Positions 8,607 through 63,852 of a stretch of DNA of 63,852 nucleotides are shown piece after piece. The translations under genes were made by a program, and so were the position numbers. The notes beneath the pieces were generated by a model. That model saw only the letters and a list, made by a program, of their open reading frames with translations. It did not search any database and was not told the origin of the DNA. Numbering within the stretch: the stretch's first letter is position 1; each line of letters starts with the position of its first letter. This DNA comes from a virus (lineage: Duplodnaviria > Caudoviricetes), in the IMG/VR virus record IMGVR_UViG_3300030389_002358, positions 1 through 63,852 of that record; one strand, given 5' to 3'.

Positions 8607-8616
8607 ATTATTTTAT

Positions 8617-26948: not shown

Positions 26949-27447
26949 ATTTAATTGTAATAAAATTTGTTTTTAATCTGTATAGTTTATCATCATCAAT
27001 CATAAACTCATATTCACCACTAGGCCTATAACCAACTATATCACCTTTTTTGTACTTATCAGAATATTGTACTTCTCCTATTAAATCATCTAATGGTTTA
27101 ACAAAAGTGTAACCTGGAAGAGCTTTCCATTTATTATTAGATTTATATGCGTATATTTGCGTATCATCTATTTTATATAAATTTTCTTTTATGTAACTAC
27201 TACTGTTTTTTTCTTTGCCTCTAGCGTCATGCCATCTTCTAAAAACATTATGATGGACTATTACCTCATCTCCAATATTAACACATGTATTAAATTGTGT
27301 TGGTAATCCTACGATTATACCTTGTCTACTAATATATTGATGAGAAAATATTTCAGTATTTAAAATAATTTCTTTGTCACCAATTTTTTTAGTATTGTTA
27401 TATCGCTTCGCTTTAGGTTTTATCAAAAAATAAAACGTGCTTTTCAT
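26893..27447 (-). CDS. GroES-like (tandem cpn10-fold) protein
   Basis: Two GroES-like segments: FLIKP...GIIVGLP...VNIGDEVIVH and TFVKP...GEV...KKGDIVGY...YEFMIDDDKLYRL. Confidence 0.5.
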   Translation of the reverse strand: MKSTFYFLIKPKAKRYNNTKKIGDKEIILNTEIFSHQYISRQGIIVGLPTQFNTCVNIGDEVIVHHNVFRRWHDARGKEKNSSSYIKENLYKIDDTQIYAYKSNNKWKALPGYTFVKPLDDLIGEVQYSDKYKKGDIVGYRPSGEYEFMIDDDKLYRLKTNFITIKYESKPEEKENNRSWIQSS

Positions 27448-34400: not shown

Positions 34401-37400
34401 TCCTGCAAAAGTTGCGTTTTGAGATTTATCTAGTGTAAGCGCTGTTGTTAAAGCCTCACCACCATCAGCTGTAGTATAAAATATCATTTTACTAGGAGAA
34501 TCACCATTTGCTACAGCTTGACCATCTGCTACTACAGCTATAGCACCCATTTGTGCAAAATCAGTTCCATCAAATCCTTGCCACCTTATTAAACCACCTT
34601 GACCATTAGGTAAAGCTACTGTTGGCGCAGAAGCATCTCTTGCTCTCAATGATATTAAATTAGCTGTACCATCTCTTCTACCTTCTACAATTAATGAGCC
34701 TCCTTCACCAGCACCACTACCACCGTCAGGGTTTGAATCATCATTAACGTGAACTTTACCATGAAAGGTTGCGTTTTGAGATGTATCTATATCTAATGCT
34801 ATAGTACCACTTGTACCTATTCTTAATTGGTCATCTGTAGTTGTAAATAATGATAACTTATTATTACCCGCAGCTAATATTCCTTTTGTATTGCTTGATT
34901 CAAGGGCTAGCAAAGCACCATTTGTAGAATTTTCGTATACGTGTAATATTTGTGCTGCCTCATCCCATCCACTGCCTGAAGGACTTGACGTTCCCACACC
35001 AACATTTTGGTGGAAAATAGCATCACCACCCGCTTCAAATGTAGCTACTATTGTACCATTTGGAGATCCATCTCCTGCTATATCATTTGTGTTGTTAGTA
35101 AAAAATCTAAACGCACCACCAGTTGCTGTATTACCAGCTACTAAATCATTATTACCATTGTTACCTAACTGTAAATATGCCCAACCAAGATTACCTCTGT
35201 AATTAGCAGTGTTATTATATAATAATTTTAATGTTTCATTGCTACCGCCAAGCGTAATGCCATTGTTAAAGGTTGCAAGGCCTGAACTTGTAATTGTTCC
35301 TCCAAAAGTTGCGTTGTGACTTTCTAATTTTAAACTTGCACTACCTTGTGAGCCCGCTGCATATGTAAAGAACTCTAATGATGAATCTTCACTACCATCT
35401 GAAACATCAGTCATCATGCCTCTTATCAATACTGATTCTATTTGTTCACCAGCATCATTATCACCATACATGTAAATTCTACCAGTCTCGTCATTATCTG
35501 CTGGACTTGCAGAGTCTTTAATTAATCTTAATTGTGGGGCTTGACCATCTGCGTTAGTATTTTTTACAGTTAAAAATGGCTTTGTGCTTGTTGATGATTC
35601 TAAAGTTACATCACCTGCAAAAGTTGCATCCCCTGCGTTTGTAACTTTAAACTGTTCTGATGTACCACCGCCATACCAAATTAAAGGTTGATTTGAAGTT
35701 GTGTTATAATTTAAACTTATTTGACCACCACTAGTTCCAGATATTTTTGCAGCAGCGCCATTAAACTCTAAGTCATTACCATTTATTCTTACATCATCCG
35801 CGAAAGTTGCTTTATTTGAATTATCAAATGTAAGACCAGCACTATTAACACCTATTTCCAAAACAGCACTTGACGCTGTGTCTGCTGTAGGTATTCTAAA
35901 CTGTATAAAACCATCGGCTAAAGCACCGCTATAATCTTCAAGTTGTAGCCTCGTTATTCTATTTGTTGTATTTGTACCCCTTAATCTTAATACAGCATCA
36001 TTGCTAGCACCTTGATTTTGCTTGACATGTAAAGCTGCGCTTGGCTCAGTAAAAGATTCTCCAATACCTATATAACCATTAGAATGTCTTATAGCCATCC
36101 TAGTAGTATAACTACCGCCACCTTTAAATTCTACATTACCTGCGCCGCTCCAGCCATACTGCAAAGTATTTCCACTTTGTACTCTAGCTATTGTTCTTTC
36201 TGTATTACTAGTATCTTTTGCTCTTAGCTCATTGCTATTATTTAAAACAATATTTTTAGTAGAACCTGTTAAAGTTATATTTCCATCAAAGTCTACATCA
36301 CCGGCAAAAGTTGCAGATGTATTACTAGTTAAAACTAAGTTATCAACTTCTCCGTTACCTCCTAATCCTAAAGTACCTCCATCATCAGTAACACCAGCTC
36401 TTGCTCTTATTGCACCATTAGAATAAATACCAGCTGTATTATCTACGTATAGGTAATTATGTGATACTTTAACTATACCATCATTTCTAACGTACATTAA
36501 TTCTTGATCATCAGCGCTTCTTAATCTAAGGTTATACGATTGATCATCACTAGTAGGTCCTTTAACTTCTAATTTAGCGTCTGGATCTGTTACTCCAATT
36601 CCTACTTTTCCGTCTTCCTGTATTCTTACTAACTCACTACCACTACCTGATTCTCCATTTGTGTAAAACGCAAAATATCTATTAGTATCATCATTATCTG
36701 TGTCAATATTAAATGTCATTAACTCTTTAGCGTTAATATGACCAGACGCTGTATCTGCTTTACCTAAATGTAATATACCACCCTCAACAGTTACAGCCCC
36801 TGCAAAAGTTGCTGCACTCGTTGTTAATGTAAATTTGTCTCCTGTTCCTAATGTACCACCACTTGAAATTTTAAATGAATTATCAGTATTATCTTTTCCT
36901 ATTGCCCAATTATCAGTGTTATTACCTGACGCATCATCAGTACCAAATGTAACTTGTGAATCACCATTTGCAGAAATTAATAATTGTGTGCCTCCATTTC
37001 TTCTTGATAATGAATAACCTTCTGCGTCATTTGTTATTTGAGTTACTTTACCATTTATTGTGTGAGCGTCACCAAAATTATCACCAATAGTTGAGTTTCC
37101 ATATACAGATAAAGTTCCTTCTATAAGCGCATTACCTGCAAAAGTTGTATCTAAACTTGAAGCAAAGGTTGCTATTGTATTGTTAGCACTGTTTTTAATT
37201 CTAACTGAACCACCACTAACACCCGCAATAAAATTAGATGCGGTTATGTCTCCACCTGATACGGTAACATCTCCTGCAAAAGTTGCATCACCATTATGAT
37301 CAACAGTAAGTTTATCTGTGCCGCCTTTATCTAAAGTAAGTAAATTACCAGTACCATCACCTCTGACATATAAAACATCACCCGTAGAACTAGCATTATC

Positions 37401-40169
37401 TGACCTTACAGAAACTACAGCTTGAGTATCTACGCCAGTATGATTAGCGTTTGTGTAAAAATATGCAGTAGCTTTATCTGTTAAATTTGTACTATCAATT
37501 TGAAACTTTCTTGATGGAGCAGTAACATTTATTCCTACGTTACCACCACTTGTTATAACCATTTTTTCAGTAGAGTCGTTGGTTAAAAATCTAATATCAG
37601 TTATAGAACCACCAAACTGAACATCATCACTACTGTCTAATGTTAATATATTTCTTTCAGCACCAGCATTGTTTTTAAAACGAAGATTTACGCTATTATT
37701 TAAAACAAGGTTACCAGTCATTGTATCACCTGCTTTAGCTACTTTAGTTGCAATACTATTTGTTACTGTTGTACTAAAGTTTGCATCGTCACCTAACGCT
37801 GCTGCTAGTTCGTTTAATGTATCTAAAGCTGCTGGTGATGAGTCTACTAAGTTTGTTACAGCTGTATCTACGTATGCTGTTGTAGCTACTTTAGTTGAGT
37901 TATCACTTGCTGACTGAGTTGTTGCTGTTGTTGCAGTATTGATTGTACCATTTAAATCACCATTAAATGTTGTGGCTGTTACGTTATTTGGAAAAGTTGC
38001 GTTTTGTGATGCTGATATGGAAAGACCTAAAGTTCCATTTGTAAATACTCTAAATGGATTTGTTCCTGATTTTAATATATCTGCGTCAGTGCTTAAAGTT
38101 ATATCACCTGTCATAGTGCCACCAGCTTTTGGTAAAGCTGCGTTAGCAGTAGTCGTAGTAGATGTTAACACAGCATCTCTTGCTGCTATATCTACACCAT
38201 CAACTGTACCGCTAACAACTATGTTTCCTGTAACATCAATACCACCGGTTGTTGTTTCTATTTTTAATGAATTATCATAGTAGAGTTTTACAGCGCCATC
38301 TTTGTAGAATAATCCCATTTTACCATTAGAAAATGAGCCATCACTTATTAGTCCAATAAAAGTACCGTTTGTATCAAAATATAAATTACCTTCGTTTAAA
38401 TCTCTTACGTAACTGTTATTTCCATCATGATACATTACTAAATCTCCTGACGCTCCAAACTTTAATCTATTATTAGAACCACCACTACTATCTCCAAATT
38501 GTATTAGATTTCCATTTGGATCTAGCGTTCCACCTAGTTGCGGTGTTGTATCTTCAACCACGTTATTTATAGATACAGCTTGTACCCGTGCGTCTGTATA
38601 ATAAAGATTACTACTACCTTCTCCAATATCATCAGTGTCTAATGTTAATGTACCACCTAAAGCTAAACTGTTTGAATTTATTGTTACGCTAGAATTAGCT
38701 AGAGAACTATTTGGAATACTTGATAAGGCAAAGTCAATGTGATTATTAGCGTCGTCGTATGTTACAGCGATGCCACCAGTTTCATCACCACCAAGCATGC
38801 TACCAATAACATCTTGAACTTGTTCGTTAGTTAGTTGAGTAGCAGCTATAGTTAATGCATTACCAGCATCATCATAAGTTAACGTTATATTAGAACCAGC
38901 TGTTAATAATGAATTAACTCTGTCATCAACTCTTTCATTAGTAAAGTATAAATTGCTACTGCCCTCTGTTATTTCATCTGTATTATCTTTTGTTGCTACA
39001 GCTGCATTTATTCTATCGTCTATAGCAGCTGATGTCATTATGCTTGTATCATTATCTGCAAAAGACTCAGAAGCTGTTTGCACAGCTGATATGTTTACGC
39101 TATCAAGTTGTATTGGTCTTGAAAAAATAACGTTTTGAGAAGAGTGATCAAAACGCATTAACTCTGTCATTACACTTGAGTCTGACGATGAGCTTATACG
39201 AAATATTAAATCTTTATTAAGGCCTTGTTTTTGAAACTCAATATCACCATTATTAGTATGGTATATTCTTAAATCAGCGTTAGCACCTATAGTAAACATA
39301 CCGCTATCATCAACTTTTAAATTACCTGTAGTTGTCTGATGGGTATTGGAAACGGTAGTAACGATAATTGAGTCTGGTAAACCTATTTGTATTTGATTAC
39401 CTGATCCCGCTGTTTCTATTTCATTTGAAGTACCAACTATAGATAATGTTTCACTGTCTAAGTCAATTGATAATGCGCCGCCGGTATCGCCTTGAAAGTC
39501 TAAATCTTGCGCAGTTATTTGTGAATCAACATAAGATTTTATTTGGGCTTGTGTAGATAAACCATTACCATTATCTGATACAGCGCCAGTTACTATTGCT
39601 AGCGAGGCTGTTGGGCCTGTACCGTTTGTTATTGTTAATTGATTTGTTGTTGTTGATTGTACCTGTGTTAGGTTACTTGCACCAATTGCTGATGGTGCTA
39701 TAGCATATATTTCTCCTGATGTTATGCTACCTTTTGCTGCTATAGGAACAGATAGTGTTAGCGTTTTAAAGTCACCATCTGTAGATATGTTTGTTATAGT
39801 AAATACACCAAAGTTGTTTTGATTATCAACATTGGATATAATTACATTTTTATTTAATAAACTTTGAATAAAATCTGCCTTAGTATTGCTTGGATCATTA
39901 AAAGAAAATACACTTATTCTTATAGTTCTCGTTGCATTAGTTTCAAAGTTTGTTTGACTTGGTGCATCTAAATAACCAGAAGCCTGACCTATTGAAGTGT
40001 CGTATTTAAATGTTATCTGGTCAGCTACTCCTGCCGCGTTGGTTGCTCTTAAAAAATCAGTTATACTAGCAAAAGTATAATTTCTTGTGCCACCACCCGA
40101 GTCAGAACCAAGCAGCTTATCATTATTACTTAATGATTGATCAGCTTGTATATTTTTTATTTTGGGCAT
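28413..40169 (-). CDS. Giant modular tail fibre/spike with C-terminal peptidase S74 intramolecular chaperone
   Basis: 3918 aa; repeated (N/D)ATFAG(D/N)V and G(N/K)VGIGT junctions; LDTLNELAAALGDD and TDEITEGSSNLYFT motifs; C-terminal TSDYRLKED...GVLAHEL...VDYSKLVPVLLKSIQEL. Confidence 0.9.
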   Translation of the reverse strand: MPKIKNIQADQSLSNNDKLLGSDSGGGTRNYTFASITDFLRATNAAGVADQITFKYDTSIGQASGYLDAPSQTNFETNATRTIRISVFSFNDPSNTKADFIQSLLNKNVIISNVDNQNNFGVFTITNISTDGDFKTLTLSVPIAAKGSITSGEIYAIAPSAIGASNLTQVQSTTTNQLTITNGTGPTASLAIVTGAVSDNGNGLSTQAQIKSYVDSQITAQDLDFQGDTGGALSIDLDSETLSIVGTSNEIETAGSGNQIQIGLPDSIIVTTVSNTHQTTTGNLKVDDSGMFTIGANADLRIYHTNNGDIEFQKQGLNKDLIFRISSSSDSSVMTELMRFDHSSQNVIFSRPIQLDSVNISAVQTASESFADNDTSIMTSAAIDDRINAAVATKDNTDEITEGSSNLYFTNERVDDRVNSLLTAGSNITLTYDDAGNALTIAATQLTNEQVQDVIGSMLGGDETGGIAVTYDDANNHIDFALSSIPNSSLANSSVTINSNSLALGGTLTLDTDDIGEGSSNLYYTDARVQAVSINNVVEDTTPQLGGTLDPNGNLIQFGDSSGGSNNRLKFGASGDLVMYHDGNNSYVRDLNEGNLYFDTNGTFIGLISDGSFSNGKMGLFYKDGAVKLYYDNSLKIETTTGGIDVTGNIVVSGTVDGVDIAARDAVLTSTTTTANAALPKAGGTMTGDITLSTDADILKSGTNPFRVFTNGTLGLSISASQNATFPNNVTATTFNGDLNGTINTATTATTQSASDNSTKVATTAYVDTAVTNLVDSSPAALDTLNELAAALGDDANFSTTVTNSIATKVAKAGDTMTGNLVLNNSVNLRFKNNAGAERNILTLDSSDDVQFGGSITDIRFLTNDSTEKMVITSGGNVGINVTAPSRKFQIDSTNLTDKATAYFYTNANHTGVDTQAVVSVRSDNASSTGDVLYVRGDGTGNLLTLDKGGTDKLTVDHNGDATFAGDVTVSGGDITASNFIAGVSGGSVRIKNSANNTIATFASSLDTTFAGNALIEGTLSVYGNSTIGDNFGDAHTINGKVTQITNDAEGYSLSRRNGGTQLLISANGDSQVTFGTDDASGNNTDNWAIGKDNTDNSFKISSGGTLGTGDKFTLTTSAATFAGAVTVEGGILHLGKADTASGHINAKELMTFNIDTDNDDTNRYFAFYTNGESGSGSELVRIQEDGKVGIGVTDPDAKLEVKGPTSDDQSYNLRLRSADDQELMYVRNDGIVKVSHNYLYVDNTAGIYSNGAIRARAGVTDDGGTLGLGGNGEVDNLVLTSNTSATFAGDVDFDGNITLTGSTKNIVLNNSNELRAKDTSNTERTIARVQSGNTLQYGWSGAGNVEFKGGGSYTTRMAIRHSNGYIGIGESFTEPSAALHVKQNQGASNDAVLRLRGTNTTNRITRLQLEDYSGALADGFIQFRIPTADTASSAVLEIGVNSAGLTFDNSNKATFADDVRINGNDLEFNGAAAKISGTSGGQISLNYNTTSNQPLIWYGGGTSEQFKVTNAGDATFAGDVTLESSTSTKPFLTVKNTNADGQAPQLRLIKDSASPADNDETGRIYMYGDNDAGEQIESVLIRGMMTDVSDGSEDSSLEFFTYAAGSQGSASLKLESHNATFGGTITSSGLATFNNGITLGGSNETLKLLYNNTANYRGNLGWAYLQLGNNGNNDLVAGNTATGGAFRFFTNNTNDIAGDGSPNGTIVATFEAGGDAIFHQNVGVGTSSPSGSGWDEAAQILHVYENSTNGALLALESSNTKGILAAGNNKLSLFTTTDDQLRIGTSGTIALDIDTSQNATFHGKVHVNDDSNPDGGSGAGEGGSLIVEGRRDGTANLISLRARDASAPTVALPNGQGGLIRWQGFDGTDFAQMGAIAVVADGQAVANGDSPSKMIFYTTADGGEALTTALTLDKSQNATFAGDVDVADTLKVNQSYQTSNEYVLIGKNTANDGGIVMSSKSGSNSATNDWQIVNQGTNRDLHFYAYGLSDNALILDRETGNATFAGDVTLGTASKKIIADFSSGGTTRKTELELYNSSDGGFTLNNEHSSTGGIKFQIDGSDALSIAKSGKHATFGGNIRTTADIGRDDHNRIMFSTDDSIIFRVADTHRARFDSDALKPYADSSYDLGTNTVRFANIYADTLYGDGSNLTGVTGEWDGSLTGNATISGSLTAGSLITTGSTGTLRLSAETNVITMPSLQDNGTFLSITQTGNESWLFKCESIGGGTADFVTIGASGAAGQFRIREGGGISAHGNSDTIPGLEIHSDNDHGMRILHRATDGDFSFERRVSGTNAEFLRIARATGNAKFSNKVGIGATASDFHADADDLVVGGGSGNTGMTIHSGTSGYGSIFFADGTADDATEKRGQIRYLQGSETMDFHTDNVATPVLTLGATGVATFTNATASGTSLLVRNYTNAIADTKTLIDFRVQGSDNSPYYVAGQMGSKAEGTWTSTSSSRDASLIFNTVLNGDNELALTLDSNKLATFEGDVTLKTGKALLFDNNGTTYIKESSDGVIDFYGDNVHLVSMKQNGTQNEVVVNEASVDVDFRVEANNSTHAFFVEAEGSGKVGIGTASPGAALNVFTGGNSIAAAAVLQHDTFGDDRKVGLGFELGNTQIKGAVGFISDDDTSSQSNGIGNLIFCVDSNDDAAPVGHADEKMRITHGGNVGIGTDSPSSKLHVSGENTVGRFVSSSSYVDLIFQNSGGTGGFLNFVNNTAFNLYVGGGSGANNKMTVKSTGNVGINNSSPTNTLVLTKSSSGQGEHGLRLEFTDTDGPTNTSSSVLVGSYGLKFKNHNSSRNFLFETGKVGIGTASPIVPLHVVGTAVNNPSNGTGGYEVMQVFDDTAYATGVGGGIGLGGKFHSNGTDTIFGEIRGIKENATDTNYASALTFSTRKHLSSITEQMRLSSEGNLGLGITTPTNSTNYKTLDIRGTSGGQILLGRTGVDFFLYSTSASTHLASNSGQDLVFHTGGSGSSNERLRIDSSGNVGIGTDSPEAILSIARNATKTNTGTAEVMHIGTSSETSNYSTLQVTTVGASAAADRKFNFQTIEQGVANAGNLNLQPSGGNVGIGTNDPAGKLHIKESSTQLILETPNTTNDIDFRWRENGTNKWNMRYQNSTNALEFLNQTSGSTLFQLSFLADGSSTFGGNVSTSGASTDFHANASNLVVGSGSGNQGLTIFSGSSAGNYGSIYFADGRADGAEEYRGMITYEQNNEIMRFHTNTTEALKLDLNQDATFAGNATINGYVVTDGQVGVDTFSPYTGTMLHVSGATTAPDTSATNPTNTTAIFSNSDVAYGTLFATHGSGIGEIMQRRTNTATYYDLHLQPHGGESAGVGIGGSVAAGFKFQVNGNANFTENVSMAAAKKIIFGGVTGSGNNAAEIVYNSGILNITADASVANKVQICGDTIEAEEGGVATFANGITVQGGGVSSNTVTVTDTITGGTGKNYASKHSATNLAAGWYTIATNTGDRAQGRFRLVDQTSSRHQAVEFYAAHHFGTDASNQLTVLMNSGFSTEIFTQLRIKDHGTYDGAALQVYIANATNTVDVFLIDQAQTSSGWVVKDFIADATDPGDVDNYASFTSKADLVLSRNDYSVSTTGAFYNKKPNAGTIGLFQGSRNFGLKFQETSVDSGVSQFQIIGINESNSYNNLHLRSAIGTGLVIDTNNDVGIGISSPDAPLHIAAASNANNAEIIRLAYTDGTKDQYRLQLKQTVTSGNVRYNFCMVNNNSAFDDMLIFDQGNIYINPSSPTGTLNTASTSGTGIRFPSGANDSGVMVSVSDESTPNIALVKHSDGSTAGREFIRFVTEGSTSGEIVTGGSTSVCAYNTTSDYRLKEDLKDFDGLDITSKIKMYDFKWKESDTRGYGVLAHELQEVVPSAVTREKDGEQMQGVDYSKLVPVLLKSIQELEARVKELENK
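30451..37286. repeat. Dispersed 14-bp repeat CCTGCAAAAGTTGC inside the tail fibre gene
   Basis: Exact copies at 30451, 34150, 34402, 35614, 36799 and 37273; near copies at 30724, 32704, 33937, 35299, 36301 and 37135. Confidence 0.9.
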
Positions 40170-41309: not shown

Positions 41310-41750
41310 TTAACGATCTTTATCTTTAATCATATCATCAATAGCTTTGTTATAAACTTTATCAGTATATGACTTGTTTTTAAAAAAAATATTTCGCTCA
41401 CTAGTAGGTAGATCTTCTTGACCTAATAGCACGCGATATATTCTGCTTATTAATTGCGAACATTTAAATGAGGTTTTAAAAATAGAAAATTTAATTGTAG
41501 TGCGGTTACGATGCCTCCAAACCTCTATCCAACCTTCAGATCTTAATTTATCCCAACGTTGTTTATTCCATGATAGCGTGTATGTTCCATCGATAAATTC
41601 TTGACGTGTAAACCTTTGCTTACAGTCTAAATATATTAATAATTCCAGTTCAGCGTCTGTTAGTTTATAAGTTTTACAGGCCCATTTTCTAACAAGCCTG
41701 TAATACTTAAATAACTGCATATCCCTCAAGTCGGATGCACTTAGTTTCAT
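41310..41750 (-). CDS. Hypothetical protein, possible winged-HTH
   Basis: YKLTDAELELLIYL...WDKLRSEGWI pattern resembles MarR-like winged HTH. Confidence 0.5.
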   Translation of the reverse strand: MKLSASDLRDMQLFKYYRLVRKWACKTYKLTDAELELLIYLDCKQRFTRQEFIDGTYTLSWNKQRWDKLRSEGWIEVWRHRNRTTIKFSIFKTSFKCSQLISRIYRVLLGQEDLPTSERNIFFKNKSYTDKVYNKAIDDMIKDKDR

Positions 41751-42004
41751 TCCACTATGACTACGTCCCCGTGTTTAATAACAAAATAATACTTGTTATC
41801 AAACTCAATACCGTGACCAGCGTGTTTATCATACCATATAATATCATTTTCATGTATACCATTTATAGTATCACCAACGCTAATTACTTTACCTTTAGAA
41901 TACCTAACATCTTCACTTTGTGATTCACTTAATATAAAACCACTATCAGACTTAGGTTCTTCTTTAATTTTTTCAATAACTATATAATAATTAACTGCTT
42001 TCAT
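41747..42004 (-). CDS. groES: Co-chaperonin GroES
   Basis: IVIEKI...SGFIL...GKVISVG...DIIWY; coupled to groEL. Confidence 0.85.
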   Translation of the reverse strand: MKAVNYYIVIEKIKEEPKSDSGFILSESQSEDVRYSKGKVISVGDTINGIHENDIIWYDKHAGHGIEFDNKYYFVIKHGDVVIVE

Positions 42005-43565
42005 TATCTTGTAATATTCTAACGTTACTAATTATACAGTCTGCAGATATAATAGTGCTTGCAACTGATGCTGCGTTTTTTAATGCTGATTTAGTTACTA
42101 AAACAGGATCAATAACACCACACTTTACCATATCTACTATTTTACCATCTATGACATTAACCCCGTAACCTTTTTTAAGTTTTTCTTCAGGCACATCTAT
42201 ATTAGCATTTTCTAATATAACCTGAAACGGTGTTGTTATAGCTTGTAATAATATTTCTTCGCCTATATTTTCTGGCTTAATAGAGTTTGCCGCGTTTAAT
42301 AAAGCTATACCACCGCCAGGCACTATACCTTCTTTTAATGCTGCCTTTGTCGCGTGTACAGCATCTTCAACTCTATCTTTCTTTTCTTTTAGCTCTACTT
42401 CGCTATCAGCACCTACATATACGATACCAACAGATCCATTTAATATAGCTAATCTTTCTTCTTGTTTATTTTTTAAGTAAGGATTTTTATCTTCCTTCTT
42501 AATAATATCTTTTACTTGTTTTATACGTTCTTTTAAGTGTTTACCTGATTTATTTATAGTGAACACTGTATGCTTATCATCTGTTACTACTTTAGCCGCT
42601 TCACCTAAACAATCAGGATTAATTAACTCAAAGTCATCACCAAGTTCTTCGTTAATAACTTTAGCGCCTGTTACTATAGCTAAATCTTCTATAGTATCTT
42701 CTTTTGTAGGTCCAAAGCCAGGTAAATCAATAAAGTTAACTTTTATATTACCTTTTACTTTATTAGTTAACAACGCTGCTTTTGGCTGCTGCTCAACTTC
42801 TCCTATTATTAATAAAGGTTTATTACCTTTAATACAATATTCTAATATGTTTTGTATCTTTCTTATATTAGGTATAGGTGATGAAGATATAAGTATTGCA
42901 GGATTTTCTAACGTACACGTGCCTTTATCTTTATCAGTTATTAAATACTGTGATTTTAAAGGAGATTTTATTTGCACGCCATCAACAACATCAACATATG
43001 TTTCTCCTGTTGGCGACTCTTCCATTAATACTATACCGTCGTTACCTACTTTTTTATACGCTTCTGCAATAATATCACCAAGCTCTTTGTCATTGTTAGT
43101 AGATATTGCAGCAACTTGTTGTAATAAATCATCATTAACGGCAACACTTTGCTTGTCCAAATTATTGATAACTTTGTTAACGCCTGATTTAATACCTTCT
43201 TTAATCGTTCTAGTATTTTCTTCTTCATGTTGTTCGGCTATTTTTAATAGTGAATGAGCAAGGATAGTAGCTGTTGTAGTACCATCACCTGCTTCTTTCA
43301 CTGTATTGTTAGCAGCTTCCTTTATTAGAGTAGCTCCTATGTTTTCAACCGGATCATATAAGACAACAGATTGGGCTACTGTTACACCGTCTTTTGTAAT
43401 CACCGGTTTGCCTAATGCGTCTTCATATATAACACATTTTCCCGAGGCTCCCAATGTAGATTTAACTGCATTGTTGAGTTTATCTACACCGTAAATAATT
43501 CTGCGTTTAGCGTGTAAGCCAAAGTCTAGATTTTTGACTATTTGGCTAGGTTGATTATATTCCAT
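41991..43565 (-). CDS. groEL: Chaperonin GroEL
   Basis: ITKDGVTVA, AGDGTTTATIL, EKKDRVEDA, EGIVPGGG and GVIDP motifs; lacks the C-terminal GGM tail. Confidence 0.97.
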   Translation of the reverse strand: MEYNQPSQIVKNLDFGLHAKRRIIYGVDKLNNAVKSTLGASGKCVIYEDALGKPVITKDGVTVAQSVVLYDPVENIGATLIKEAANNTVKEAGDGTTTATILAHSLLKIAEQHEEENTRTIKEGIKSGVNKVINNLDKQSVAVNDDLLQQVAAISTNNDKELGDIIAEAYKKVGNDGIVLMEESPTGETYVDVVDGVQIKSPLKSQYLITDKDKGTCTLENPAILISSSPIPNIRKIQNILEYCIKGNKPLLIIGEVEQQPKAALLTNKVKGNIKVNFIDLPGFGPTKEDTIEDLAIVTGAKVINEELGDDFELINPDCLGEAAKVVTDDKHTVFTINKSGKHLKERIKQVKDIIKKEDKNPYLKNKQEERLAILNGSVGIVYVGADSEVELKEKKDRVEDAVHATKAALKEGIVPGGGIALLNAANSIKPENIGEEILLQAITTPFQVILENANIDVPEEKLKKGYGVNVIDGKIVDMVKCGVIDPVLVTKSALKNAASVASTIISADCIISNVRILQDNESS

Positions 43566-53693: not shown

Positions 53694-55424
53694 ATGCAAG
53701 TAGAAAACACAGAGATCAATGGTTTTAAGATTAACGAGTTTAATCAATATCATCTTGCAGTGGGTAAGACACAGGGGATTTGTCCTCTGTGTTCTCACGA
53801 CAGGAAACCTGAGAACCGTAAGAAGAAATGTGCTTCTTATGACTGGGAACGTGGTCTCGGTACTTGCCACAACTGTAATTCAACTTTTCAACTACACACT
53901 TACGAACGTAAGGGAGCTAGCGATCGTGAATACGTTCGACCAAGTTTTTCTACAAAAACTCACAAAGCTCCTAGTAGTAAAGTTATAAAATGGTTTAAGT
54001 CAAGAGGAATATCTCAGGATACTTTAGAAGATTTAAATGTTTCTGAAGGTCCTGAGTTTATGCCTCAAACTGGCAAGCAAGAGAACACGATAAAGTTTAA
54101 TTACTTTATGGGTAATAAACTTGTTAATGTTAAATATAGAGACGGTGCTAAAAACTTTAAATTATATAAAGGCGCCGAAAAAATATTTTACAATATAAAC
54201 AGTATCGTTAATCATCAAACTTGTGTTATAGTAGAAGGTGAAATAGATGCCCTGTCTTTACATGAAGCAGGTGTAAGAAATGTTGTATCTGTTCCAAACG
54301 GTGCTACGCTAAATCACAATAACTTAGATTATCTAGACAATTGTATAGATTATTTTGAAGATAAAGAAAAAATAATATTAGCTGTTGACGCTGATGAACC
54401 TGGCACTATGTTAAAACAAGAGTTTATACGTAGGTTAGGAGCTGAAAACTGTTATTTAGTAGATTTTAACGACTGTAAAGATGCTAATGATTACTTAGTA
54501 AAATACGGTGCTAAAGAGTTAAGGTCAATTATAAACAGTGCTCAACAAGTACCATTAGAAAATGTAACAACACTTAAAAATGTAGAAAATGATTTAAAAG
54601 ATTTTGTTAAGCACGGTTTTAAACCTGGCTTTCAAGTTGGCTTAGAAAACTTTGATGATATATTTAGTACCTATACAGGTCAGTTTATAACTGTAACAGG
54701 TATACCATCATCAGGCAAATCAGACTTTGTAGATCAAATGGTCGTAGGTTATAATAAAATGTATGGCTGGAAGACAGCATTCGCAAGCCCTGAAAATCAA
54801 CCTATATATTTACATGCACATAAACTTATGCGTAAATGTTGGGGCGATATGCCTTCACCTGGTGATATAGGTGGCAGCACTTGGAAAAAAGTTTCAAACC
54901 ATGTTAACGATAATTTTTATTTCATAGACATGGATAAGTATAGTTTAGAGTCTGTATTACGTAAAGGCGCTGAGCTAGTTAAACGTAAAGGTATCAAGTG
55001 TTTAGTCATTGATCCTTACAATAAAATAAGAGACGCGAACGCAGTGTCAGATGATGTTAATAGATATACTATGGACTACTTATCAAAGATAGAGCAGTTC
55101 TGTAAAAAGTATGATGTCTTAACATTTATAGTAGCACATCCGACAAAAATGATGCGTGATCAAAACGGTAAAATACAAGAGCCCACAATGTATAATATAA
55201 AAGGTGGTGGTGAGTGGTATGATGCAAGTTATCATGGGTTATTAGTACATAGAGATTATGAGGCTAAAAATACTAAAGTAAAAGTATTAAAAGTTAAGTT
55301 TCAAAATCTAGGTGAAAACGGTGCTGAATCGTTTTTTACTTGGGAGCCTAAATCAGGTTCTTTTGTACCGCAAGTTAATGTATTAGATAAAGAAAAAAAT
55401 GACAGCGGCCTTCCATGGGAGTAA
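53694..55424 (+). CDS. Primase-helicase (T7 gp4/Twinkle-like)
   Basis: Zn finger CPLC...CHNC; TOPRIM IVEGEIDALS and DADEPG; Walker A GIPSSGKS; VIDPYN and VAHP. Confidence 0.95.
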   Translation: MQVENTEINGFKINEFNQYHLAVGKTQGICPLCSHDRKPENRKKKCASYDWERGLGTCHNCNSTFQLHTYERKGASDREYVRPSFSTKTHKAPSSKVIKWFKSRGISQDTLEDLNVSEGPEFMPQTGKQENTIKFNYFMGNKLVNVKYRDGAKNFKLYKGAEKIFYNINSIVNHQTCVIVEGEIDALSLHEAGVRNVVSVPNGATLNHNNLDYLDNCIDYFEDKEKIILAVDADEPGTMLKQEFIRRLGAENCYLVDFNDCKDANDYLVKYGAKELRSIINSAQQVPLENVTTLKNVENDLKDFVKHGFKPGFQVGLENFDDIFSTYTGQFITVTGIPSSGKSDFVDQMVVGYNKMYGWKTAFASPENQPIYLHAHKLMRKCWGDMPSPGDIGGSTWKKVSNHVNDNFYFIDMDKYSLESVLRKGAELVKRKGIKCLVIDPYNKIRDANAVSDDVNRYTMDYLSKIEQFCKKYDVLTFIVAHPTKMMRDQNGKIQEPTMYNIKGGGEWYDASYHGLLVHRDYEAKNTKVKVLKVKFQNLGENGAESFFTWEPKSGSFVPQVNVLDKEKNDSGLPWE

Positions 55425-55431
55425 ATACTCA

Positions 55432-55671
55432 ATGGGTAAATATAATAGAAACAAACAGGAAGATGAAGCTAGGCTATGGTGTATGGAAAACGATATATGT
55501 ATAACACCTAGGCAGCTTAAGTGGGGTGAAAAAGTTTGGGTTGTTGATATAGAAAAAGGAAAATATCCTAATCGTAAACTGTTAGGTACTTCTGATCCAT
55601 ATGGACCAAATACAATATGGGAAAAGGTATCAGAGTATCAACTATATTACTATAAAAAATATGCGAAATAA
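55432..55671 (+). CDS. Hypothetical protein
   Basis: Start refined to MGKYNRNK; coupled to the next gene. Confidence 0.6.
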   Translation: MGKYNRNKQEDEARLWCMENDICITPRQLKWGEKVWVVDIEKGKYPNRKLLGTSDPYGPNTIWEKVSEYQLYYYKKYAK

Positions 55672-56302
55672 TTTTTACAATGCAAATGAAGCTTTTAATT
55701 ATCTTTGGCACTACATACAAAAACAAGGTGTAGACTTTGATAATACTAAGGCTATATTTAATTGTGGTTTCACGTTGCAAGCACCGGTAGAAAACCACAT
55801 AACAAATAAACTACGTGATTGGAAACATGATTACGCTGAAGCTGAATGGCAATGGTACTTATCAGGCGATCCTAGTATAGATAAGCTAGGTAAAATATAT
55901 GGTAAGATACCTCCAATATGGGAACGTATGGCTGATGCAAAACGAGAAGTACGATCTAATTATGGTTGGCAGTGGAACAGAGAAGATCAGTTAGATCAGG
56001 TTATTCAAAAATTAAAAGATAAACCTGACACACGTCACGCTGTAGTTAGTATTTATGATGGCAAAGAAATAGACAGATATAGATATGACACGCCATGTAC
56101 TTACGCGGTTCAATTCACGTTAATAAATAATAAACTTTGTATGTCTGTTTACATGCGATCTAATGATCTCTGGTACGGCTTTTGTAACGATCAATACTGT
56201 TTTAGTATGTTGCAAAAATTAGTTGCAGAGAGATTGTCTATTGATGTCGGGTGGTATTATCATCATGCACATAACATGCATATTTATAACGACAAATTAT
56301 GA
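55661..56302 (+). CDS. Thymidylate-synthase-family enzyme, probably dCMP hydroxymethylase/methylase type
   Basis: Catalytic PC; MRSNDLWYGFCND with Asp at the ThyA Asn177 position; HIY; start refined to MRNNFY. Confidence 0.75.
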   Translation: MRNNFYNANEAFNYLWHYIQKQGVDFDNTKAIFNCGFTLQAPVENHITNKLRDWKHDYAEAEWQWYLSGDPSIDKLGKIYGKIPPIWERMADAKREVRSNYGWQWNREDQLDQVIQKLKDKPDTRHAVVSIYDGKEIDRYRYDTPCTYAVQFTLINNKLCMSVYMRSNDLWYGFCNDQYCFSMLQKLVAERLSIDVGWYYHHAHNMHIYNDKL

Positions 56303-57072
56303 AGTATTTTATTTATCATATTCCTGGTAAAAAAATTGGTGTTACCTGTGACCTTAATAACCGGGTCACGTTACAACAAGGTTATTCACCTAATGAATAT
56401 GAAGTATTAGAAAGCTCTGAAGATTTAGATTATATATCTGAAAGAGAATTAAAATTACAGAAACAATATGGTTACCGTGTAGATATGGTACCGTATAAAA
56501 AACTTAAATCAAAAACAACTATGAATTTAAATGTAACAGAACAAACAACTACCTTTCCTTGTCCTGTAGATAAACTAAAAGGTAGATTATTTGATATTAT
56601 AGGTCACTCATGGTCAACTGATCATGGTGATTTTACAATAGATCAAGACTCAATAAAGTGGATAATAGATAATGTTAAAATGTCTATGTATAATACTGAA
56701 AGATCATACGTATATAATAAAGCTTTTGCGGTTTGGCGAGATAACAAGTCAACTGTTAAGTGTTCAAAAAGACCTCTTAAAATGTTTTCAAACATTAGAA
56801 GTTGGGCAGAAGAAAGAGGTATATATACAAAGGGTGATTCAAAAACTCAATTAATTAAATTACAAGAGGAGATGGGTGAGTTAGCTAAAGCTATACTAGA
56901 AAACGATAAGCCAGAAGTTATAGATGCTATTGGTGATATGGTTGTGGTGTTAACTAACTTAGCACATTTGAATAACGTACATATTGAAAGCTGTATAGCT
57001 GAAGCATACAACGTTATAAGCAAGAGAAAAGGTAAAATGATTAATGGAACATTTGTTAAAGATGAAGGTTAA
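56299..57072 (+). CDS. Fusion of an N-terminal GIY-YIG-like domain and a C-terminal MazG-like NTP pyrophosphohydrolase
   Basis: FIYHIPGKKIGVTCDLNNR...ERE at the N-terminus; KLQEEMGELA...DAIGDMVVVL...KRKGKMINGTFVKD at the C-terminus. Confidence 0.75.
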   Translation: MKYFIYHIPGKKIGVTCDLNNRVTLQQGYSPNEYEVLESSEDLDYISERELKLQKQYGYRVDMVPYKKLKSKTTMNLNVTEQTTTFPCPVDKLKGRLFDIIGHSWSTDHGDFTIDQDSIKWIIDNVKMSMYNTERSYVYNKAFAVWRDNKSTVKCSKRPLKMFSNIRSWAEERGIYTKGDSKTQLIKLQEEMGELAKAILENDKPEVIDAIGDMVVVLTNLAHLNNVHIESCIAEAYNVISKRKGKMINGTFVKDEG

Positions 57073-57286
57073 TACACAAGACAAAATAGTACAAGCTGTT
57101 ATAGCTAAAATGGATAAACGTAGTTTAGTTGGTCAACAAAAGTACGGGCAAACAATGCATAACGAAATAACAACTAATAAAAAAAATCTATATGATTTTT
57201 TAGTTGATGTTCAAGAAGAAATAATGGATGCGTTGTTATACATTGAAGCTGCAAAAACATGTATAGATAATGAGACGAAAGATTAG
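57062..57286 (+). CDS. Small all-alpha NTP-pyrophosphatase-like protein
   Basis: RS..GQQKYG...QEEIMDALLY; start refined to 57062. Confidence 0.55.
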   Translation: MKVNTQDKIVQAVIAKMDKRSLVGQQKYGQTMHNEITTNKKNLYDFLVDVQEEIMDALLYIEAAKTCIDNETKD

Positions 57287-58126: not shown

Positions 58127-59095
58127 ATGGGATTATTTGACAAGCGTATAGCATATAAACCTTTTGAGTACCCTGAGTATTATAACGAGGGTTGGTTGAA
58201 ACAAGCTCAAGCATTTTGGTTACACACTGAAATACCTATGTCAGGTGATGTAAAAGACTGGAACGAAAAATTAACTAACGCAGAAAAAAATTTAGTTGGT
58301 AATATACTGCTAGGTTTTGCGCAAACTGAATGCGCTGTATCAGACTATTGGACACAAAAAGTAGTATCATGGTTTCCTAAACATGAGATACAACAAATGG
58401 CAATGATGTTTGGTAGTCAAGAAACAATACACGCTGTAGCGTATAGCTATTTAAACGAAACATTAGGCCTTGAAAACTTTGAAGCGTTTTTACACGAACC
58501 TGCAACAGCAGAACGTTTTGATAATTTAGTTTCATATGATGGTACAGATCCTATAGAAATAGGTAGATCACTTGCTATATTTTCTGCGTTTGCAGAAGGT
58601 GTTAGTTTATATTCTGCTTTTGCTGTATTGTATAGTTTTCAAATGAGAAACTTATTAAAAGGTATAGGCCAACAAATGAAATGGTCTGTTAGAGATGAAA
58701 GTCTACACTCACGTATGGGTTGTAGATTATTTAGACATATGTGTGAAGAAAAAGACTTTTTAAAAGAGTCATGTAAACCACATATTGTAGAAGCAGCACA
58801 CGTGATGCATGATGCTGAAATGAAATACATAGATAAGATGTTTGAAGCTGGAGACATTGAAGGCTTAAAATCTTATGACTTAAAACAATTTATAAAGAAA
58901 AGATTAAATGAAAAACTGGTGGAGCTTGGGTACGAAGAGCTCTCGAAAGAATTTAAATACGACAAAGGAGCCGCAAAAGAGCTTAGTTGGTTTTATCATC
59001 TTACTGGTGGTCATACCCATACTGACTTTTTTGCTATTAGGCCTACAGACTATAGCAAAGCAAATGAAGGAGAAGACTTCGAAAATATCTGGTAA
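58127..59095 (+). CDS. nrdB: Ribonucleotide reductase class I beta subunit
   Basis: FWLHTEIP, ETIHAVAYS, EGVSLYSAF and RDESLHS di-metal/tyrosyl motifs. Confidence 0.95.
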   Translation: MGLFDKRIAYKPFEYPEYYNEGWLKQAQAFWLHTEIPMSGDVKDWNEKLTNAEKNLVGNILLGFAQTECAVSDYWTQKVVSWFPKHEIQQMAMMFGSQETIHAVAYSYLNETLGLENFEAFLHEPATAERFDNLVSYDGTDPIEIGRSLAIFSAFAEGVSLYSAFAVLYSFQMRNLLKGIGQQMKWSVRDESLHSRMGCRLFRHMCEEKDFLKESCKPHIVEAAHVMHDAEMKYIDKMFEAGDIEGLKSYDLKQFIKKRLNEKLVELGYEELSKEFKYDKGAAKELSWFYHLTGGHTHTDFFAIRPTDYSKANEGEDFENIW

Positions 59096-59100
59096 ATAAT

Positions 59101-60822
59101 ATGTGGAGTAATAGATGGAAAAAAGGCGTTGATTACCCAGAGTGGGCAGACGCTGAAGTGTATAAAAAAACTATAACTGGTGGTTATCTATATAACGGAG
59201 AAACACCTCGTGAAGCGTATGAACGTGTGGCAACAACAGTTGCAAGGCGTTTAAGGAAGCCAGAAATGGCTGATACATTTTTTGATTATATTTGGAAAGG
59301 TTGGTTGTGTTTAGCATCACCTGTATTGTCAAACACTGGCACAGAAAGAGGTTTGCCCATATCTTGTTTTGGCATTGATGTTGCTGATAGTATATTAGAT
59401 ATAGGTACCAAAAACCTAGAGATGATGTTACTAGCTAAACATGGTGGTGGTGTTGGTATTGGTATAAATCAAATAAGGCCAGCGGGCGCTGAGATTACAA
59501 TGAACGGTACGTCAGATGGCGTTGTACCTTTTTGTAAGATATATGACTCAACTATACTAGCTACTAATCAAGGGGCTGTAAGAAGAGGCGCTGCATCAGT
59601 TAATTTAAATATAGATCACAAAGACTGGGAAGACTGGTTAGAAATAAGGGAACCTAAAGGTGACGTTAATAGACAATCATTAAACCTACATCAATGTACT
59701 ATAATAGGTGATAAGTTTATGCGTAAACTTAGAGACGGTGATAAAGTTGCAAGGCGTAAATGGGGTAAATTACTTCAGAAACGTAAAGCAACTGGTGAGC
59801 CTTATATAATGTTTAAAGGTAATGTTAACAAACAAAACCCTAGCATGTATAAGGATAATGCTTTGAAAGTGTTTATGACAAACATATGTTCAGAGATAGT
59901 ATTACATACAGATGAAAACCATAGTTTTGTTTGTTGTTTATCTAGTTTAAATCTAGCTAAATATCACGAGTGGAAAGACTCAAACTTAATATATGATAGT
60001 GTATGGTTTTTAGATGGAGTATTAGAGGAATTTATACAAAAAGCAAAAAATAGGAGAGGATTTGAAAACGCTGTAAGGTTTGCAGAAAAAGGTAGAGCAC
60101 TTGGTTTAGGTGTTTTAGGTTGGCATACTTATTTACAACAAAAAGGTTTTCCTTTTGAAGGCTTATTAGCACAATATGAAACAAGAAGAATATTTAGTCA
60201 AATTAAAATTGAAAGCGAAAGAGCTAGCATGGCACTTGCAGAAGCGTTTGGTGAACCGTTATGGTGCGTGGGCACCGGATTTCGTAATAGCCATCTTCGT
60301 GCTATTGCACCTACCGTTTCTAATTCAAAGCTTGCTGGTAATATTAGTCCAGGAATCGAGCCTTGGGCGGCTAATGTATTTACGGACCAAAGCGCGAAAG
60401 GTACGTTCATACGCAAAAATCCTACTCTTGTTAAAGAACTGGAGAAACATAATTTAAATACTAAAAAAATATGGGATCAAATTTTGCAGGACGGTGGTTC
60501 AATACAAGGTGTAAAACAATTAGACAACGTTACATGCGGAGAGCACGATACACCTATAAAAGACGTATACAAAACATTTAAGGAAATAAATCAACTAGAA
60601 TTAGTTAATCAAGCTGGTATAAGACAACAGTATATAGATCAGTCTGTTAGTTTAAATTTAGCTTTTCCTTCACAAGCAGATCCTAAATGGATAAATAAAG
60701 TACATTTAGAGGCTTGGAAAAAAGGTATTAAGACTTTGTATTATATGCGTACCGAGTCGGTACTTAGAGGAGATATAGCTGAAACAGCTATGAGTGAAGA
60801 TTGTTTAAGTTGTGATGGATAA
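59101..60822 (+). CDS. nrdA: Ribonucleotide reductase class I alpha subunit (no ATP cone)
   Basis: SPVLSN, ISCF, GGGVG, TNICSEI, CCLSSLN, IAPTVS, IDQSVSLN, KTLYY and C-terminal CLSCDG. Confidence 0.95.
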   Translation: MWSNRWKKGVDYPEWADAEVYKKTITGGYLYNGETPREAYERVATTVARRLRKPEMADTFFDYIWKGWLCLASPVLSNTGTERGLPISCFGIDVADSILDIGTKNLEMMLLAKHGGGVGIGINQIRPAGAEITMNGTSDGVVPFCKIYDSTILATNQGAVRRGAASVNLNIDHKDWEDWLEIREPKGDVNRQSLNLHQCTIIGDKFMRKLRDGDKVARRKWGKLLQKRKATGEPYIMFKGNVNKQNPSMYKDNALKVFMTNICSEIVLHTDENHSFVCCLSSLNLAKYHEWKDSNLIYDSVWFLDGVLEEFIQKAKNRRGFENAVRFAEKGRALGLGVLGWHTYLQQKGFPFEGLLAQYETRRIFSQIKIESERASMALAEAFGEPLWCVGTGFRNSHLRAIAPTVSNSKLAGNISPGIEPWAANVFTDQSAKGTFIRKNPTLVKELEKHNLNTKKIWDQILQDGGSIQGVKQLDNVTCGEHDTPIKDVYKTFKEINQLELVNQAGIRQQYIDQSVSLNLAFPSQADPKWINKVHLEAWKKGIKTLYYMRTESVLRGDIAETAMSEDCLSCDG

Positions 60823-60849: not shown

Positions 60850-61167
60850 TTATTCGTTTTTCCAAATAATATAATTACTGTTACGCCAAAATTCATTTGT
60901 ATTTCTAGCATCAATAATAACAGATGGTTTATCTATAAAAAAACCACTGTCTTCTACTGCTTTTTGTAAAGCATAAAAATCTACGTAATGATCTTTTTTA
61001 AAATTTATTTCAAATGTTGTTTTTTCAATATCAGCATTTACACTTTCTACGAAGTATACTTTTTCAACAGACTTTTGAATACTGAAAGAGCACATACTGC
61101 AAGTTAATCCTATAACTTTTAATGTTATGCTATTTAAAGCTAAAGCTAGTATAAATAATTTAATCAT
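60850..61167 (-). CDS. Heavy-metal-associated (HMA, CopZ/MerP-like) domain protein
   Basis: LKVIGLTCSMCSFSIQKSV...AVEDSGF; short hydrophobic N-terminus. Confidence 0.8.
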   Translation of the reverse strand: MIKLFILALALNSITLKVIGLTCSMCSFSIQKSVEKVYFVESVNADIEKTTFEINFKKDHYVDFYALQKAVEDSGFFIDKPSVIIDARNTNEFWRNSNYIIWKNE

Positions 61168-63446: not shown

Positions 63447-63852
63447 TTAATTAACTTTTTTACCACCAGATCTAGCTGGATTACTTGCTACAGGAGCACC
63501 ACTACCACCTGTTGTATTACCACCATAACTTTGCGTTCCTGATGAACTACCTACACTTATTGGAGCACTATTATTAACGTTTGGATACGGTGTTATTTGT
63601 CCATACGTTCCGTTAGCTCTACCATGGTATCTCCACCTATCATTATAATATCTGTAGTCATAATGATGATCATAACCTGGCACGTAAAACCTATTATCTT
63701 GCCACCTAACAAAATCATAACCAACTACGTTATACATGCGTTGTGGTTGTATATCTTGTATTCTTATTTTAACAGTGTCACCCATTTCAGTTAATGCTAG
63801 AACGTGAGTAACCATAACCTGGTTACCTCTGTATAAAAGGTCTGAACAGCTT
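63447..63852 (-). CDS. C-terminal part of the junction-spanning lipoprotein
   Basis: In frame with 1-242 across the circular join; Tyr-rich, then Gly/Ser-rich tail. Confidence 0.75.
   Translation of the reverse strand, partial: SCSDLLYRGNQVMVTHVLALTEMGDTVKIRIQDIQPQRMYNVVGYDFVRWQDNRFYVPGYDHHYDYRYYNDRWRYHGRANGTYGQITPYPNVNNSAPISVGSSSGTQSYGGNTTGGSGAPVASNPARSGGKKVN
63691..63852. repeat. Terminal overlap, copy 2
   Basis: Matches 1-162 except at 63768, 63774 and 63822. Confidence 0.95.

Follow-up and report, generated by a model that had tools for sequence, protein, structure and literature searches.

Cytosine replacement in phage DNA is known from the T-even phages, where the pathway comes with a kinase, a polymerase and sugar transferases. 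In these phages gp56 turns deoxycytidine triphosphate (dCTP) into deoxycytidine monophosphate (dCMP), depleting the former and feeding the hydroxymethylase, gp42, and in Xanthomonas phage XP12 the DNA has been reported with 5-methylcytosine (5mC). Here we analyse the 63,852-bp genome of a virus of the Caudoviricetes (IMG/VR record IMGVR_UViG_3300030389_002358), which is the entire record, has 33% G+C, is rated as ~99% complete and will be called the window. An earlier note on this DNA had pointed to a thymidylate-synthase-like gene with the aspartate of dCMP-specific enzymes, and had proposed a minimal pathway towards either 5-hydroxymethylcytosine (5hmC) or 5mC. The reading that we favour, with fair though by no means full confidence, is that of a minimal T4 gp42-type dCMP 5-hydroxymethylase which, together with a MazG-type dCTPase and with host enzymes, would place 5hmC in the virion DNA and blunt restriction.

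A few positions of the ThyA family have been tied to substrate and product. In PMC8670742, the N177D change (Escherichia coli ThyA numbering) switches the enzyme to dCMP, and an Asn-to-Asp change alone makes a canonical thymidylate synthase a dCMP methylase; the same paper presents D177 as enriched among enzymes on cytosine-modified environmental phage contigs, which together with the T-even phages makes this a kind of system already known. A change of Leu143 to Asp or Glu accompanies hydroxymethyl and not methyl products, and a change of Asp169 to Asn is the mark of the newly found flavin-dependent synthases of 5-hydroxy-dCMP (5hodCMP), according to PMC13326640. For the dCMP hydroxymethylases (dCH), PMC6400193 proposes a signature made of an Asp at the third position ahead of the catalytic Cys (Cys-3), a Ser-x-Tyr motif and the absence of the C-terminal tail. 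Lastly, Ser167 and Arg126 select deoxyribose, whereas the Ala and Lys found in MilA, the cytidine monophosphate (CMP) 5-hydroxymethylase of mildiomycin biosynthesis, select ribose (PMC5175136).

The gene under study (Table 1) encodes 213 amino acids (aa) plus the stop; this start was preferred over an upstream ATG at 55601 because most database relatives have 213 aa. Its product matches Pfam PF00303 (Thymidylat_synt) at an E-value of 1.2e-25, the score of 90.6 bits being well over the cut-off of 24.3. The best PDB sequence matches are the MilA CMP hydroxymethylase (E 4.5e-23) and the T4 dCMP hydroxymethylase (E 1.3e-16), ahead of the true thymidylate synthases, and every score against the NCBIfam thymidylate-synthase equivalogs lies far under the cut-off (best 79.4 bits vs 327). 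The AlphaFold2 model, built from 60 sequences, is very confident (predicted local distance difference test, pLDDT, 97.4; predicted template modelling score, pTM, 0.93), so that the short protein can be taken as a complete domain. In Foldseek, the model superposes on MilA with a query TM-score (TMq) of 0.91 and a root mean square deviation of 1.7 Å, and on T4 dCH with a TMq of ~0.8; there were 396 PDB matches at E <= 0.001, and all among the matches listed belong to the ThyA family. The catalytic Cys (C146), R166 and the sugar-binding pair H207/Y209 of the ThyA fold are all present.

Signature residues were read from one MAFFT alignment of the query with control enzymes, namely E. coli ThyA (from NC_000913.3), RB69 td, SPO1 gp29, RB69 gp48 and T4-type gp42, a set that does not include the XP12 dCMP methylase. 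Query and E. coli ThyA numbering coincide for residues 143 to 209, and the key residues of the query are E62, S99, Y101, R125, H126, D143, C146, T147, R166, S167, D169, D177, H207 and Y209. The motif R-S-N-D-L-W-Y-G-F-C-N-D is read at 56156-56191, in the frame of the gene, and its last Asp, D177, shares the column of E. coli N177 in the MAFFT alignments and pairs with the specificity Asp of MilA and T4 dCH in the PDB alignments. The earlier note had thus placed correctly both the thymidylate-synthase-like gene and its Asp, equated there with E. coli Asn177 and with the Asp of the T4 enzyme. The controls gave the published residues: L143, H147, D169 and N177 stand in E. coli ThyA and in RB69 td; SPO1 gp29, a deoxyuridine monophosphate (dUMP) hydroxymethylase, has D143 and N177; RB69 gp48, the 5hodCMP synthase, has E143, N169 and D177; and T4-type gp42 has D143, T147, D169 and D177. 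The query agrees with T4-type gp42 at 13 of the 14 tabulated positions, including a Glu at the E58 equivalent, the exception being a His at the R127 position, and it shows the whole gp42-type set of Asp177, Asp at Cys-3, Ser-x-Tyr and no folate-sealing C-terminal tail. The stretch beyond the Y209 equivalent has only 4 residues in the query; it has 12 in RB69 gp48, 28 in T4-type gp42 and 55 in E. coli ThyA.

These residues bear directly on what the enzyme may do. D177 indicates a cytosine substrate, which makes it hardly credible that the gene is an ordinary thymidylate synthase supplying deoxythymidine monophosphate to an AT-rich genome. Database relatives do carry the name ‘thymidylate synthase’, the gene lies near ribonucleotide reductase, and MW202828.1, a freshwater phage related through its terminase, encodes a ThyX in the corresponding part of its genome, but the canonical Asn177, Leu143, His147 and C-terminal tail are replaced or missing (D177, D143, T147 and a 4-residue tail), in line with the low equivalog scores given above. 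D143 together with S99-x-Y101 would in turn indicate a hydroxymethyl rather than a methyl product. A dCMP methyltransferase making 5-methyl-dCMP, and hence a DNA with 5mC, appears improbable to us: the single Asn-to-Asp change that suffices to convert a canonical synthase speaks for it (PMC8670742), while the Asp at the Leu143 position, the Ser-x-Tyr motif and the lack of a C-terminal tail for hydride transfer speak against it, all of them features that mark hydroxymethylation in PMC13326640 and PMC6400193. Of the two products named in the earlier note, these hallmarks, added to the cytosine-specificity Asp, favour 5hmC over 5mC.

The same table of residues addresses two further members of the family. 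MilA is the best PDB match both in sequence and in structure, and a MilA-like hydroxymethylase acting on the ribonucleotide CMP, for a purpose other than DNA, could be envisaged; we regard it as very unlikely, since the Ala176 and Lys133 of MilA are replaced by Ser167 and Arg125, as in deoxy-specific enzymes, a pair that indicates a preference for deoxyribose over ribose, and since the gene sits within the phage replication and ribonucleotide-reductase module. MilA (PDB 5jnh, 5b6d) does share with the query the cytosine-specificity Asp and the Asp at Cys-3, and is ~100 residues longer. The query also resembles PDB 9iqc, a riboflavin-dependent monooxygenase with dCMP and flavin adenine dinucleotide (TMq 0.86), and shares N177D and an acidic residue at 143 with the flavin-dependent 5-hydroxy-dCMP synthases of the RB69 gp48 / DLP3 gp80 type. 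However, the diagnostic D169N is absent, Asp169 being kept in 120 of 120 close relatives while the RB69 gp48 control has N169, and no glycosyltransferase cluster was found; because D169 is retained, an assignment to this type seems exceedingly improbable. A change of the annotation from ‘thymidylate synthase’ to ‘dCMP hydroxymethylase’ looks well supported.

Among characterised enzymes, T4 gp42 (PDB 1b49, 1b5d, 6a9a) shares with the query its superfamily and fold, the positions E58, Ser-x-Tyr, Asp at Cys-3, Cys, T147, R166, S167, D169, D177 (179 in T4), His and Tyr, and the lack of a folate-sealing tail. It differs in sequence (~25% identity), in length (246 aa vs 213 aa in the query), in its longer stretch after the conserved Tyr, in having Arg where the query has His at the second phosphate-binding position, and in belonging to a separate clade of the tree; moreover, neither a dNMP (deoxynucleoside monophosphate) kinase nor a glucosyltransferase or a polymerase of the phage was detected to accompany the query. 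The closest cultured homologue is BF486P2_00032 of Bacteroides phage BF486P2, annotated as deoxycytidylate 5-hydroxymethyltransferase, which is 45% identical, has 226 aa, shares the signature and the motif of the D177 region, and comes from a phage whose host also belongs to the Bacteroidota. That phage differs in having a second, divergent paralogue, with a dUTPase-family gene close by, and in lacking the MazG fusion. Its two ThyA-family paralogues (5126-5887 and 7959-8639 of locus L003 from BF486P2) both carry D143 and D177 and flank the dUTPase-family gene, and one of them has Leu in place of the Glu58 equivalent and Gln at the R127 position. Our literature search found no experimental report on the BF486P2 hydroxymethylase or on BF486P2 DNA.

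The signature residues are strongly conserved. In a comparison of 120 close relatives at 70-100% identity, D177, D169 and Y101 occur in 120 of 120, and D143, C146, S99 and H126 in 119 each. Of the 150 nearest representatives of clusters at 50% identity, 117 were left after removal of 33 under 190 aa; with the query these form a wider set of 118 full-length sequences, in which Asp177 and Asp169 occur in all 118 members and Asp or Glu at 143 in 113. To judge from this pattern the signature residues are under purifying selection, and D177 is not a chance occurrence. The family is very large: a word-indexed search gave at least 8,000 significant relatives (8,000 of the 8,000 scored candidates), and an exhaustive one 8,028 cluster representatives at E <= 0.001. 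The phylogeny called for in the earlier note was computed with FastTree from an alignment of 129 sequences over 231 columns; it joined the query to the Bacteroides phage BF486P2 protein in a clade of 6 with a support of 0.72, but did not resolve the deep nodes, and the functional call therefore rests on the signature residues and not on the position in the tree.

Directly downstream, the ATG of a second gene overlaps the hydroxymethylase stop by 4 nt (ATGA). It encodes a three-part protein, hereafter the fusion, whose C-terminal part (residues ~160-257) is a nucleotide pyrophosphatase domain of the MazG type, with the four-helix fold of that class. The domain is matched by Pfam PF01503 (PRA-PH; 30.1 bits vs a cut-off of 21.3) and PF03819 (MazG; 24.9 bits vs 22) and by the PDB profile of 1vmg (E 9.8e-8), and its acidic residues E190, E191, E194, D209 and D213, the presumed metal ligands of the catalytic site, are invariant in 21 sequences. 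In the model of the fusion (pLDDT 81.6), residues 154-257 give VIA Z-scores of 8.8-9.1 to MazG-type structures, including the MazG-like enzyme of cyanophage S-2L (7ody, Z 9.0), and Foldseek places human DCTPP1 (7mu5) and Bacillus MazG (5ie9) at probability 1.00, with E-values of 0.03-0.04 for the whole-protein query. These two structures are given in Table 1 of PMC13326640 as the best structural matches of the RB69 gp56 dCTPase. What the MazG domain of the fusion has in common with the T-even gp56 is thus a set of all-alpha MazG-type matches; the two differ in that the fusion matches MazG and lies behind two extra domains, whereas gp56 matches Pfam dUTPase_2 and not MazG; a MazG profile run against T4 and RB69 gave no match. 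The dUTPase_2 and MazG families belong to one superfamily. By analogy, we propose that the MazG domain may act as a dCTPase converting dCTP to dCMP.

The rest of the fusion is less readily classified. In the model, residues 1-60 form a beta-beta-alpha-beta-alpha domain with a weak likeness to T5orf172/MUG113, below the cut-off and seen in 3 of 6 homologues, and in the protein atlas this domain falls in clusters where 11-48% of the members carry T5orf172. Residues 75-150 form an alpha/beta domain to which no family was assigned, and the Foldseek and VIA lists are taken up by matches to the MazG domain. The earlier note had seen two nucleoside-triphosphate-pyrophosphatase-like genes here, which holds for the fusion, on Pfam and structural grounds, but not for the following gene of 80 aa (57044-57286), where no tool gave a pyrophosphatase match. 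For this second candidate, which was dropped, Pfam gave none at E <= 0.01 and nothing relevant at E <= 10 in 18 members, a PDB profile search returned one chance-level row only, hhalign against the MazG family gave a probability of 0.5%, and the protein atlas contained unnamed clusters only. Its 24 invariant columns in 18 relatives include an acidic stretch (E58, E59, D62), which makes a distant pyrophosphatase relationship possible.

Linkage between these genes was counted in the best 80 of 513 confirmed IMG/VR relatives. The MazG fusion directly follows the hydroxymethylase in 80 of 80 loci, and the 80-aa gene, a DUF1064 gene and nrdB are each found in 75. The backbone of the window is common to 78 of the 80, and these count as one lineage for that reason. 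The same pair recurs in the loci L055 and L069 (73% and 45% identity), on a different, small phage backbone with another terminase type, from which we conclude that hydroxymethylase and fusion travel as a cassette. In L055 (2961-7392) and L069 the four genes directly ahead of the pair encode a DUF6378 protein, a 315-aa protein with a weak likeness to a beta-glucosyltransferase, a 300-aa protein without assignment and an enzyme dependent on pyridoxal phosphate; for the 315-aa protein of L055, the match to the T4 beta-glucosyltransferase has a Pfam E-value of 4e-4, below the cut-off, and neither PDB nor a named PHROG lends support. This set is a candidate cluster for 5hmC hypermodification, and none of the four genes has a homologue in the window.

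Five Flavobacteriia-type phages related through the terminase (phi13:2, phi38:1, elemoD, Gundel_1 and MW202828.1) have no PF00303 gene (0 of 5) and allow restriction-site avoidance to be compared, as palindrome counts observed/expected under a second-order Markov expectation. All five strongly avoid GATC (0/202 in MW202828.1, and 118/206, 112/230, 52/184 and 74/183 in the rest), and in several of them other C-containing 4-mers are avoided completely, for example CATG (0/147) and GGCC (0/24) in elemoD, CGCG (0/35) in phi38:1 and CCGG (0/26) in MW202828.1. Such avoidance is lacking throughout the window (GATC 178/177, CCGG 28/26, CGCG 41/53) and in the 78 pooled loci of its lineage (GATC 2733/2448, CCGG 447/445). 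The absence of 4-mer avoidance fits a cytosine-modified, protected DNA, as indirect evidence.

In the chemistry that we favour, Cys146 would attack C6 of a dCMP held by D177, methylene-tetrahydrofolate would donate one carbon at C5, and a water activated by D143 would hydroxylate the exocyclic methylene; no hydride transfer is expected, because no C-terminal tail seals the folate site. The translationally coupled MazG protein would turn dCTP into dCMP, depleting the canonical nucleotide and feeding the hydroxymethylase, and the phage ribonucleotide reductase would supply deoxynucleotides. It would then fall to host kinases and to the replicative polymerase of the host to make and incorporate the hydroxymethylated triphosphate (5hm-dCTP), a reliance that we infer from the genes not found in this genome. 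The virion DNA would then carry 5hmC, with no recognised glycosylation gene, and restriction would be blunted. On balance, the phage DNA probably contains modified cytosine.

The genes in question were sought among open reading frames (ORFs) called with a simple longest-ORF script, all of which were scanned with Pfam and PHROGs except one of 50 aa. The earlier note saw no evident glycosyltransferase, dNMP kinase or polymerase, which agrees with these scans, and with a Walker A scan in the case of the kinase, where the only kinase-style motif in a plausible gene was that of the primase/helicase. The complete T-even set for cytosine replacement, with a dNMP kinase, a DNA glucosyltransferase and a DNA polymerase encoded by the phage, was accordingly not found in the genome, nor was ThyX detected in its ORFs by Pfam or PHROGs. 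Some ~40 ORFs lack annotation, and a divergent kinase, polymerase or glycosyltransferase could hide among them.

Several observations weigh against the favoured reading. Pfam, PHROGs and the Walker A scan found no dNMP kinase in the genome ORFs, and substitution could therefore be low unless a host kinase accepts the product, 5hm-dCMP. In PMC13326640, the related 5hodCMP synthase, when placed in E. coli without its kinase, led to trace incorporation only, and E. coli polymerases are described there as inserting such modified nucleotides into plasmid DNA. The contrast in 4-mer avoidance is confounded by hosts that are not identified and by the mutual relatedness of the 78 loci. Within the window, C-containing 6-mers are depleted (GATATC 1 vs 16.5 expected, AGTACT 3 vs 15.4, TCTAGA 4 vs 13.6, GAATTC 0 vs 6.2, GGATCC 0 vs 5.8); some restriction pressure remains, and these 6-mers may be the sites of enzymes not blocked by the presumed modification. 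As for the enzyme, its 4-residue tail is shorter than in any characterised enzyme compared, the R127 position is His in 119 of 120 relatives (Gln in SPO1 gp29), the nearest cultured homologue, that of BF486P2, is only 45% identical, and the query stands outside any characterised clade in a tree whose deep nodes have supports of 0.0-0.88. Phage records with the MazG domain type number 1,281; many belong to temperate phages of Firmicutes, and none covers 80% of the fusion. The type is common in phages without such an enzyme context, and because it is so widespread its presence alone is not evidence of dCTP removal.

Part of this evidence would also suit another scenario, in which 5hm-dCMP is made and the DNA stays little or not substituted, hydroxymethylase and MazG protein serving to reshape nucleotide pools, for example by drawing down dCTP and dCMP to the benefit of an AT-rich genome, or by opposing a dCTP-acting host defence. 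The genome has indeed 33% G+C and no dNMP kinase, polymerase or glycosyltransferase found among its ORFs, incorporation in E. coli without the cognate kinase was a matter of traces (PMC13326640), and for a cyanophage MazG that prefers deoxyguanosine triphosphate and dCTP a role in recycling nucleotides of the host towards an AT-rich genome has been put forward (PMC6850273). Nevertheless, a hydroxymethylase is an odd means of draining a pool, the lineage lacks the 4-mer avoidance seen in the five enzyme-less relatives, which suggests a protected DNA, and D177-type enzymes are associated with cytosine-modified contigs of environmental viromes in PMC8670742. We consider this scenario unlikely, and prefer the incorporation of 5hmC.

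A bolder form of the 5hmC reading, which we hold only tentatively and with more doubt than belief, is that the two-gene cassette suffices for bare, unglycosylated 5hmC in a very common lineage of ocean phages by way of the kinases and replicase of Flavobacteria-type hosts, that 5hmC is a regular component of marine viral DNA, and that the N-terminal domain of the fusion, which is weakly GIY-YIG-like, is perhaps a nuclease acting on unmodified host DNA. T4 endonuclease II acts on unmodified host DNA. If 5hmC is indeed incorporated, a widespread group of marine phages would carry this base from the smallest known enzyme of the family and without the kinase, polymerase and sugar transferases of the T-even phages, which would tell how little base replacement needs. 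It would also affect the sequencing and enzymatic cutting of marine viromes, and would offer a compact hydroxymethylase for biotechnology.

Table 1. Features of the hydroxymethylase region, with positions in the window.
Feature	Positions	Strand	Evidence
Primase/helicase, sole replication enzyme of that class found	53694..55424	+	PHROG 239, E 2.1e-84; Toprim and DnaB_C (Pfam)
90-aa ORF, overlaps the hydroxymethylase start	55399..55671	+	Family searches negative; tblastn match in 37/80 loci
Predicted dCMP 5-hydroxymethylase, ThyA family, 213 aa	55661..56302	+	PF00303, PDB matches, signature residues, model
S99-N-Y101 codons, equivalent to T4 dCH Ser94-x-Tyr96, second part of the hydroxymethylase signature	55955..55963	+	Alignments
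D143-T-P-C146 codons, predicted water-activating Asp 3 residues before the catalytic Cys, hydroxymethylase signature	56087..56098	+	Alignment
D177 codon, position of E. coli ThyA N177 / T4 dCH D179, predicted cytosine-over-uracil selection	56189..56191	+	Alignments
257-aa three-part protein with C-terminal MazG domain, candidate dCTPase	56299..57072	+	Pfam, profile, model
Conserved 80-aa protein	57044..57286	+	PHROG 11184; present in 75/80 related loci
Ribonucleotide reductase small subunit (deoxynucleotide supply)	58127..59095	+	Pfam PF00268, E 7.1e-57
Ribonucleotide reductase large subunit	59101..60822	+	Pfam PF02867, E 4.3e-91

The genome that surrounds this cassette has two arms. The structural arm encodes portal, large terminase, virion proteins, a fibre-like protein of 3,917 aa, GroEL/GroES-like chaperonins, holin and endolysin, and the other arm holds the replication and nucleotide genes: ligase, a sigma-like factor, Erf, exonuclease, primase/helicase, hydroxymethylase, MazG fusion, DUF1064 and both ribonucleotide reductase subunits. 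The first 162 bases (1-162) recur at 63691-63852 with 98% identity and 3 differences, which points to a circular or terminally redundant genome; the end overlap was probably assembled from slightly differing variants. For the large terminase, identity is 63% with MW202828.1, a freshwater metagenomic podovirus, and 34-46% with Flavobacterium, Cellulophaga and Tenacibaculum phages; by these identities the host is likely to be a marine one of the Flavobacteriia type. The sequencing runs listed as containing near-identical DNA are 20, from 16 studies, and each is labelled as a marine, seawater or aquatic metagenome; the DNA occurs in all of them as contigs, and none of the 20 is an RNA run. A megablast of 8 kb against cultured phages gave zero matches, and the openly accessible literature, supplements excluded, contained no paper that we could find on this lineage or on the hydroxymethylase-MazG pair.

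Some minor observations concern other parts of the genome. A GroEL-like chaperonin gene (PHROG 5725, E 3e-136) has an adjoining GroES-like gene, and a second GroES-like gene lies beside the terminase (41747-43565 and 26893-27447, minus strand). There are two giant ORFs on this strand: the one at 28413-40169 (3,917 aa) shows tail-fibre-like matches at its C-terminal end only, and the one at 1365-8606 (2,412 aa) matched no family. Immediately beyond the ribonucleotide reductase genes and running opposite to them (60850-61167, minus), a gene encodes a 104-aa protein with a domain of the heavy-metal-associated type (HMA; E 4.8e-9) and, weakly, a thioredoxin-like match. Finally, the spacing between the nrdB and nrdA matches in close relatives (L004-L083) goes from ~1.0 kb to ~2.7 kb, a variation which suggests that elements such as homing endonucleases or inteins have been inserted in some of these genomes.

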